DNA of 64,000 bases from Bdellovibrionota bacterium (GTDB lineage Bacteria > Bdellovibrionota_C > UBA2361 > JBIKWN01), in assembly GCA_044356295.1 (NCBI GenBank), contig JBIKWN010000008.1, positions 1-64,000 on the forward strand. Direction: 5' to 3'. Position numbers and translations under genes: made by a program. Below the pieces are notes generated by a model. That model was not told the DNA's origin and did no database searches. It was given only the letters and a program-made list of their open reading frames with translations. The number at the start of each line of letters is the position of its first letter. The stretch's first letter is position 1. Below are positions 34 to 317 of this stretch, piece after piece.

Positions 34-153
34 TAAAAATGTCTTTAATTACTTGCTACCGGACAGTAGTGCTCGAATGCTAGCTCACGCCTACGCTCAA
101 GCTCACGGTCACGGGGAACACAGTGCCAAAGACGGGACTTGCAGTATTGTTTT

Positions 154-173
154 GGGTTCAAGTCCCTGTGGGG
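154..173 (+). repeat. Inverted copy of the tRNA T-arm/acceptor 3' strand
   Basis: GGGTTCAAGTCCCTGTGGGG is the exact reverse complement of 205-224. Confidence 0.9.
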
Positions 174-201
174 AAATGATCTGAGAATAAATAAAAAAAT
201 A

Positions 202-275
202 TGGCCCCACAGGGACTTGAACCCCGGACCAATCGGTTATGAGCCGACTGCTCTGACCAACTGAGCTATAGGGCC
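202..275 (-). tRNA. tRNA-Ile2 (CAT anticodon, lysidine type); CCA not encoded
   Basis: Minus strand GGCCCTATAGCTCAGTTGGTCAGAGCAGTCGGCTCATAACCGATTGGTCCGGGGTTCAAGTCCCTGTGGGGCCA folds as a cloverleaf. The GGCCC acceptor and CTCATAA loop resemble ileX-type tRNA rather than initiator Met; elongator Met not formally excluded. Confidence 0.9.
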
Positions 276-299
276 ATAGCGTTGGGATAGGGGATAAAA

Positions 300-317
300 A
301 TAGCTTAGTTGGTCAGA
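300..317 (+). repeat. Inverted copy of the tRNA D-arm
   Basis: ATAGCTTAGTTGGTCAGA matches the reverse complement of 252-269 at 17/18. Confidence 0.85.

Follow-up and report, generated by a model that had tools for sequence, protein, structure and literature searches.

The repeats closest in layout to the locus described here are the tRNA-linked repeats (TLRs) of Escherichia coli. [quoted passage not shown] Known since 1978, they have neither an established function nor an explained origin, and they are transcribed and processed to stable RNAs (RtT, RrA/B/F), according to the accessible part of PMC8144298. The words "inverted" and "mobile" are absent from the main text of that paper, and no description of inverted arms or of 5' units in TLRs was found in the searchable literature, which does not extend to subscription papers such as Rudd 1999 and Egan and Landy 1978. 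A second point of comparison is the att duplication of tRNA-targeting integrative elements, which shares with the units described below a junction in the T-loop or T-stem, the regenerated tRNA and the displaced 3' fragment (accessible part of PMC9897764). Third, Ssn, of the GIY-YIG family, cuts single-stranded DNA beside NTS/SRM hairpins, a few bases from the stem, and the accessible part of the source contains no occurrence of tRNA (PMC11893778). The NTS/SRM repeats of Ssn and the REPIN-RAYT or IS200-IS605 repeats of Y1 enzymes resemble the present units in being short DNA hairpins acted on as single strands, but Ssn and REPIN-RAYT repeats have a fixed sequence, whereas here the target supplies most of the stem sequence. 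Template switching with quasi-palindrome correction, bridge RNAs and DNA mini-hairpins are further concepts that were considered.

The window, a stretch of 64,000 nt whose start is the first base of contig C23 in a genome of 2.96 Mb and 128 contigs, carries a tRNA gene with a CAT anticodon at 202–275 on the minus strand (ARAGORN and Rfam). The gene encodes no CCA, and the tRNA alone reaches the cut-off in an Rfam scan of positions 1–1500. Besides this gene the genome has two CAT genes, which are read as initiator and elongator tRNA-Met from their sequences, and one tilS gene. By elimination among the three CAT genes and because tilS is present, we infer that the gene encodes tRNA-Ile2, and it is essential and apparently single-copy. 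Divergent from the tRNA, a gene for a C4 zinc-ribbon, CT398-like coiled-coil protein occupies 406–1176, with a predicted promoter at 396–425. At 3734–7113 there are two genes that we take from their motifs to resemble the photolyase/cryptochrome family, with small ORFs between them.

Inverted copies of the arms of the tRNA flank the gene on both sides, as the earlier note had described. Positions 154–173 are the exact reverse complement of 205–224 (20/20, arms 31 nt apart), and 300–317 match 252–269 in inverted orientation at 17 of 18 positions (arms 30 nt apart). In addition, 134–141 are complementary to 159–166 and have the same letters as tRNA positions 212–219 of the window. In 20,000 random 100-nt windows of the genome, the longest exact inverted match to the Ile2 tRNA was 15 nt. 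The genome is rich in repeats and holds 17 perfect inverted repeats of at least 20 nt with a spacer of 20–60 nt; therefore, what is special at this locus is that one arm is a tRNA.

An assembly or amplification artefact was one explanation considered by the earlier note. The locus lies 134 nt from the contig start, and the window begins with a copy of palindromic repeat family A (1–74), 34 of whose 95 copies in the genome lie within 150 nt of a contig end. However, each arm pair was recovered, with strain differences, in Logan contigs of low depth from independent studies (four runs not marked as the source). Run X2 covers 60–197 without any difference. A 151-nt record of run X3 (117–234) spans both T arms with three differences, all within the spacer, and a second record (246–396) spans both D arms with one difference. 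The arm pairs are covered by separate records, and no single piece spans the whole structure. The exact pattern of tRNA-Ile2 plus arm is also present in 22 of the 124 genomes of the phylum, which is a lower bound. Because each arm pair stands within a single 151-nt record of another study, the bracketing structure is real, and the probability of an artefact is close to negligible.

The 3' unit starts at 201, adjoining the discriminator, so that it sits directly behind the tRNA gene as TLRs do. On the minus strand it consists of a T-rich tail of 28 nt with a predicted terminator-like run after the tRNA end (174–201), the inverted copy of tRNA positions 70–51, which comprise the 3' strand of the acceptor and the T-arm (20/20; 154–173), an A-rich loop AAAACAATACTG (142–153), a short direct copy of tRNA positions 56–63 that pairs with the inverted arm to form stem P2 (134–141), and a linker with the left arm of hairpin P3 (117–133). 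There it meets a copy of palindrome family B (83–116), which has 98 copies in the genome at up to three substitutions. This family apparently truncates the Val(TAC) array of the genus mate G002 as well. Complete 3' units in this genome and its relatives have the same order of tail, inverted copy of T-arm and acceptor, A-rich loop and short direct copy; their hairpin is whole, and a direct copy of the tRNA 3' end closes them, in many cases together with a second tail. They are about 100–125 bp long, and their predicted fold is a three-way junction. The periods of the units are 74–181 bp, mostly 98–125 bp (29 rows, including three duplicates, among 145 tRNAs). The direct copy of the tRNA end is absent in the window, where the unit stops at 117, and is mostly 8–16 nt long in complete relatives, with 22 nt at locus L022. 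Compared with these relatives, the 3' unit of the window is a truncated relic, cut at 117 by palindrome family B.

One record from a sister strain has the layout that the unit family predicts. This record, of run X3, passes from 117 into 12 letters by which the hairpin is completed and then enters a further copy of 191–211, which gives a period of about 107 bp; 21 letters match, 10 of them tRNA (one record, depth 2.4). Judged from this record, the sister strain seems to keep the whole unit of about 107 bp, including the direct copy that is missing in the window.

The E. coli K-12 TLRs, among them the 178-bp tyrT/tyrV repeats (RtT RNA, rttR, RF00391) and the lysT-lysQ repeats, are like the unit family described here in their site behind a tRNA, the terminal direct copy and the tandem arrangement. 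When eight E. coli loci were checked, the direct copy was found at seven. A clear inverted arm (score 13) is present at tyrT, tyrV and lysQ, and a weak arm of 9/10 lies 27–28 nt behind the tRNA at lysT, lysY and lysZ. At lysW the best arm match is elsewhere, and proL has neither arm nor direct copy. TLRs number one to five copies at a locus. The number of copies is TLR-like here too, because both single units and tandem arrays occur, with two copies at Arg(TCT) in this genome and at least four at locus L013. The units described here differ from the E. coli TLRs in their shorter period, in the A-rich loop and the short direct copy, which are unseen in E. coli units, in the length of the terminal direct copy in most units and in having mirror-image units at 5' ends. 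RF00391 gave no match at E <= 10 in the genome and none in window positions 1–1500. Given a TLR layout without a match to RF00391, the units are classed from their sequence as a new variant of TLR-like layout rather than as RtT.

The earlier note had held that the flanking copies are not ordinary att remnants, and this view is borne out. Unlike att duplications, which bound an integrase island by direct repeats, the units are only about 100 bp long, contain an inverted arm and have no gene inside any unit seen. Separate from the units, displaced 3' fragments of tRNA-Ile2 were observed 6.8 and 12.6 kb downstream of the gene in two other genomes, at L142 (G058:C3) and at L127/L192 (G059:C111), which suggests that islands use this tRNA too. 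In G059, the unit is found past the island, on the far side of the displaced fragment, so that unit and island are separate events. L142 itself is a minimal unit without the hairpin.

Units are not confined to tRNA-Ile2. In this genome they stand at the 3' ends of 5 of the 36 tRNAs, which are Ile2, Arg(TCT), Pro(GGG), Arg(CCT) and Cys. In two genus mates, where the 40 regions fetched held 45 RNA genes, besides the Ile2 loci, the same order was found behind Val(TAC), Asp, Cys, Pro(TGG) and Leu(TAA). One A-rich loop is common to 17 distinct units at seven anticodons. For 153 tRNA loci, a sample enriched for Ile2, inverted arms with a score of at least 11 were found at the 3' side in 38 of 150 cognate flanks versus 19 of 765 swapped flanks, and at the 5' side in 6 of 149 cognate flanks versus 11 of 765 swapped ones. 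In 37 of 39 cases, no other isotype matches the arm as well as the tRNA that it flanks. In 15 aligned units with 14 pairs, 83.8% of the cells are paired and 36 double changes occur, figures that none of 500 shuffles reaches and that compare with at most 53% for slid registers; kin are not independent here, and relatedness and the tRNA stems themselves contribute to both figures. Flanking antisense arms with covariation are thus present at other tRNA genes of this and related genomes. A strict pattern search over the genome contigs gave seven matches, one of them a chance match without a tRNA, and is too strict to gauge breadth. A relaxed loop-plus-stem scan for the scaffold away from tRNAs gave 18 matches versus 16 in the reversed genome and has no power. 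In another phylum, a 181-bp unit of the same layout was seen at a tRNA-Leu(CAG) of an uncultured Clostridiales (L073). Three metagenome matches to the pattern are initiator-type tRNAs, two of them with a similar layout, and have no bearing on Ile2.

Units occur in tandem. Close relatives differ by gains and losses of units, and the parts of a unit that derive from its target vary with the tRNA beside it. In one genus of 35 genomes, sorting by eye of 26 readable Ile2 loci gave six with this unit type, 14 with another, five with none and one too short to sort. The tRNA at L152 has an altered T-stem. The inverted arm beside it fits this altered stem, but the stem typical of the genus persists in the direct copy; the unit has a tail of 5 nt and an arm reaching the discriminator. 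From these sequences, the arm of L152 appears to have been re-templated from the local tRNA. For the question whether the short direct copy tracks the arm or the tRNA, there is one informative case.

Part of this evidence could also come from a functional RNA trailer, in which the 3' unit serves as a small RNA released by processing or as an aid to precursor processing, like E. coli RtT or RrB, and RNA structure is selected. The direct copy would then act as a tRNA-like 3' end for nucleases, the inverted arm would tune folding or decay of the tRNA, and the copy in the window would be broken. Among the internal mismatches of the 3' arms, read on the tRNA strand, G-U occurs 14 times versus one A-C (several of them common to kin), so pairing on the tRNA strand is either under selection or reflects history. 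This G-U bias on the transcribed strand is the best evidence for a role at the RNA level and counts against reading the units as DNA, although it fits selection on RNA structure and selection on that DNA strand equally. Covariation, the tracking of the tRNA by the L152 arm and a 3' unit at 27 of the 48 Ile2 loci also speak for a trailer, as does the finding that E. coli TLRs are transcribed and processed and that the rrn ones bind Hfq and CsrA (accessible part of PMC8144298). On the other hand, the same paper, as far as accessible, gives TLRs no known function, unit types replace one another within a genus, and the tRNA invasion predicted for all complete units (see below) looks costly. The same scaffold also lies on the non-transcribed strand in 5' units. 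We therefore regard an RNA trailer as unlikely.

The evidence on strands comes from the 5' side. Upstream of the tRNA, on the minus strand, a leader that contains the predicted start site (276–299) is preceded by the inverted copy of tRNA positions 7–24 in the D-arm (17/18; 300–317), which is the arm of the 5' unit. A hairpin follows at 318–357, in the same place as the hairpin of a complete unit in G002, and 358–392 (minus strand) is probably the decayed rest of the unit. It would hold a faint second copy of the leader 91 nt away (repeat D4, 288–301 versus 379–392, 12/14). In G002, two tandem 5' units stand before this tRNA, both with the order copy of the first tRNA bases, hairpin, linker, hairpin, anti-D copy and leader. 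The window retains the anti-D copy, the adjacent hairpin and the faint second leader. Thus the 5' copy of the window is probably what decay has left of a mirror-image unit, whose complete form stands in tandem in G002. It is not located directly behind a tRNA or rRNA gene and counts as a mirror variant of the TLR layout. In the 5' unit of Ala(GGC) in G002, the A-rich loop and the three-way junction are the same as in the 3' unit of Asp but on the strand opposite the tRNA, and the 5' units of Val(GAC) and tmRNA in this genome likewise have the A-rich loop on the strand opposite the RNA gene. A scaffold on the non-transcribed strand suggests that the units work as DNA rather than as precursor RNA. 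Duplications of 5' ends with hairpins were also seen in this genome (G000) before Val(GAC), Gly(GCC), Arg(TCG) and tmRNA (G000:C74:25441-25620, C76:33480-33683, C110:1390-1571 and C51:41694-41900).

The arm of the 5' unit overlaps a predicted promoter. A sigma-70-like site on the minus strand (297–325), with the -35 element at 325–320, a 17-nt spacer and the -10 element at 302–297, matches the consensus at 9 of 12 positions. The scan, which scores sigma-70 consensus matches only, found two sites versus a shuffle mean of 0.7, and 325–297 is the sole promoter-like site found on the minus strand. The anti-D copy sits in the spacer of this predicted promoter and would therefore not be transcribed. 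In G002, a promoter-like site, again judged by consensus match only, overlaps the anti-D copy in both tandem units.

The earlier note had proposed that leader and trailer invade the D- and T-arms of the precursor and so gate the maturation of the AUA-decoding tRNA. Its thermodynamic premise holds, since the flanks can invade at equilibrium: the invaded fold lies below the forced cloverleaf by 17.6 kcal/mol for a start at 290 and by 25.1 kcal/mol for a start at 330, with 17.6–27.4 kcal/mol overall and z = -7.46. The recurrence of the promoter overlap in G002 and the units on both sides at 5 of the 48 Ile2 loci would also suit a switch. Several results speak against the device itself. The anti-D copy lies in the predicted promoter spacer, and no ligand-sensing part was seen. 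The two sides belong to two unit types and are not associated at Ile2: among 48 loci, both sides are present at 5, only the 3' side at 22, only the 5' side at 3 and neither at 18 (Fisher p = 1.0; three initiator tRNA rows excluded, with small numbers and kin that are not independent). In the genus mates, G001 has neither unit at Ile2 and G002 has the 5' unit only. The same units occur at Arg, Pro, Cys, Val, Asp and Leu tRNAs, and the 3' unit of the window is a truncated relic. Judged from these sequences, the bracketing of Ile2 by a 5' and a 3' unit is an ordinary coincidence. A dedicated two-sided switch is very improbable. The locus is a real feature that was wrongly framed as a single switch and probably not a purpose-built one for this tRNA. 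A version of the switch at the DNA level, in which a hairpin of anti-D copy and D-arm opens or blocks the promoter, would be another form of the device and is no more probable. A passive folding effect on the precursor is conceivable.

Equilibrium folding predicts an invaded tRNA in all 19 complete natural units, including those at Asp, Val(TAC) and Cys. The idea that a complete unit shields the tRNA by internal pairing was also considered and is not supported, because all 19 still invade at equilibrium. Cells evidently tolerate the invading arms; in the simplest view, the cloverleaf would fold ahead of them and the T-rich tail would be cleaved or end transcription. The tRNA would survive since the anti-D arm lies upstream of the start and since the cloverleaf folds, and is probably released by cleavage or termination, ahead of synthesis of the anti-T arm.

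No enzyme could be tied to the units when GIY-YIG, Y1, integrase and reverse-transcriptase (RT) families were searched. This genome has four Y1 matches, one small GIY-YIG gene, three integrase-family matches and one RT fragment. Among 27 small GIY-YIG genes examined (30 loci fetched in the order), 19 lie within 650 nt of the 3' end of a tRNA or tmRNA, and none of these 19 has an inverted arm longer than 12 nt. The scaffold hairpin was found at none of the 30 GIY-YIG loci and at none of 20 Y1 loci, one of which is near a tRNA or tmRNA gene. Four unit-bearing genomes (G001, G002, G009 and G030, 62–97% complete) have a UvrC-sized GIY-YIG match only. The Y1 family is present in 75 of 91 genomes, and the unit-bearing genomes G058 and G083 gave no Y1 match. 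As for the three integrase-family matches, they either share no contig with a unit or are some 30 kb away from one. Thus, at the loci examined, the units, unlike Ssn/SRM or REPIN-RAYT repeats, do not flank a nuclease or transposase gene of their own.

Several genes met in this search are of separate interest. The 19 small GIY-YIG genes sit behind tmRNA, tRNA-His or tRNA-Ala. The one in this genome (115 aa; G000:C51:40795-41142, L089:496-843) is opposite to and 253 nt behind tmRNA, with palindromes before it; it is a candidate Ssn-like mobile cassette, apparently separate from the tRNA-linked units. A Y1/RAYT-like transposase of 324 aa (G000:C8:3343-4317) is 98% identical in G002, is multi-copy across the order with up to 22 matches per genome and scores below the NCBIfam cut-offs. 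The RT fragment (G000:C126:1636-2163) has as its neighbour what looks like a toxin-antitoxin-type gene pair, on a contig of 2.6 kb.

Other origins were also considered for the units. A phage origin was rejected, with 0 and 3 pattern matches in viral contigs and no real match in annotated phages; by eye, the three were a tRNA end with a short arm, a convergent tRNA pair and a sequence that is not a tRNA unit. A bridge-RNA-like guide was dismissed since the overlap of the sense and antisense pieces is complete and the two are base-paired with one another. An invertible att site was set aside by reasoning, as inversion from T-loop to T-loop would break the acceptor end.

The earlier note had also offered a fold-back scar as an alternative, and this survives in part. 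In its developed form, the units arise without a dedicated enzyme, by template switching of replication (fold-back and return) at tRNA genes, which are strongly transcribed and prone to form hairpins. The scaffold would spread between tRNA loci through microhomology of T-loops, and quasi-palindrome correction would perfect the arm. In this unit type the arm has a constant inner end at tRNA position 50–53, while its outer end and the tail vary, as template switching would have it, and the short tail of L152 with its arm up to the discriminator fits as well, as does the failure to find an enzyme. The conserved scaffold is the part left unexplained: the same loop occurs at D-arm and tmRNA 5' junctions, which share no T-loop sequence, and the fold geometry is fixed across isotypes. 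Such an enzyme-free origin seems to us quite unlikely.

We consider it probable that the locus holds two independent TLR-type DNA units, one at each end of the same tRNA gene and both decaying, which are self-templating and mobilised as folded single strands. The units would be selfish or near-neutral DNA that works as folded single strands. In the proposed mechanism, the inverted arm pairs with the T- or D-arm of the tRNA gene and positions the three-way junction. An enzyme that cuts single-stranded DNA, supplied in trans, would nick beside the A-rich loop; Ssn-like GIY-YIG or Y1/HUH families are candidates. Repair synthesis with fold-back template switching would then insert the unit. The insertion would duplicate the tRNA end and leave the gene whole, with the arm re-copied from the local tRNA, and slippage between direct copies would yield arrays. 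A 5' unit would have to supply a new promoter, which would explain why the promoter overlaps the anti-D copy.

A bolder form of this proposal is a self-programming mobile element of single-stranded DNA. Here the A-rich loop and the junction would be the handle for an enzyme, and the stem copied from the tRNA would be a guide rewritten for each target, usable in either orientation (T-arm or D-arm). We put this forward tentatively, as a speculative possibility more doubtful than not. If true, it would explain the origin of the E. coli TLR/RtT repeats, a question open since 1978, and it would imply a DNA-guided insertion enzyme with a specificity of about 20 nt. If an enzyme reads the fold, it would amount to a programmable system for single-stranded DNA insertion.

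The locus itself is a relic. It adds a pair of truncated and complete strains, a mirror-image 5' form and evidence of re-templating. Together with its relatives it gives four testable handles on the TLR question: an inverted arm belongs to the layout, in E. coli too; it is re-matched for each tRNA; the loop is common to isotypes; and the same fold recurs in mirror image at 5' ends, on the non-transcribed strand. If there is no enzyme, an essential and apparently single-copy tRNA would tolerate an antisense trailer with 20 perfectly matched nucleotides, a point of relevance to co-transcriptional folding.
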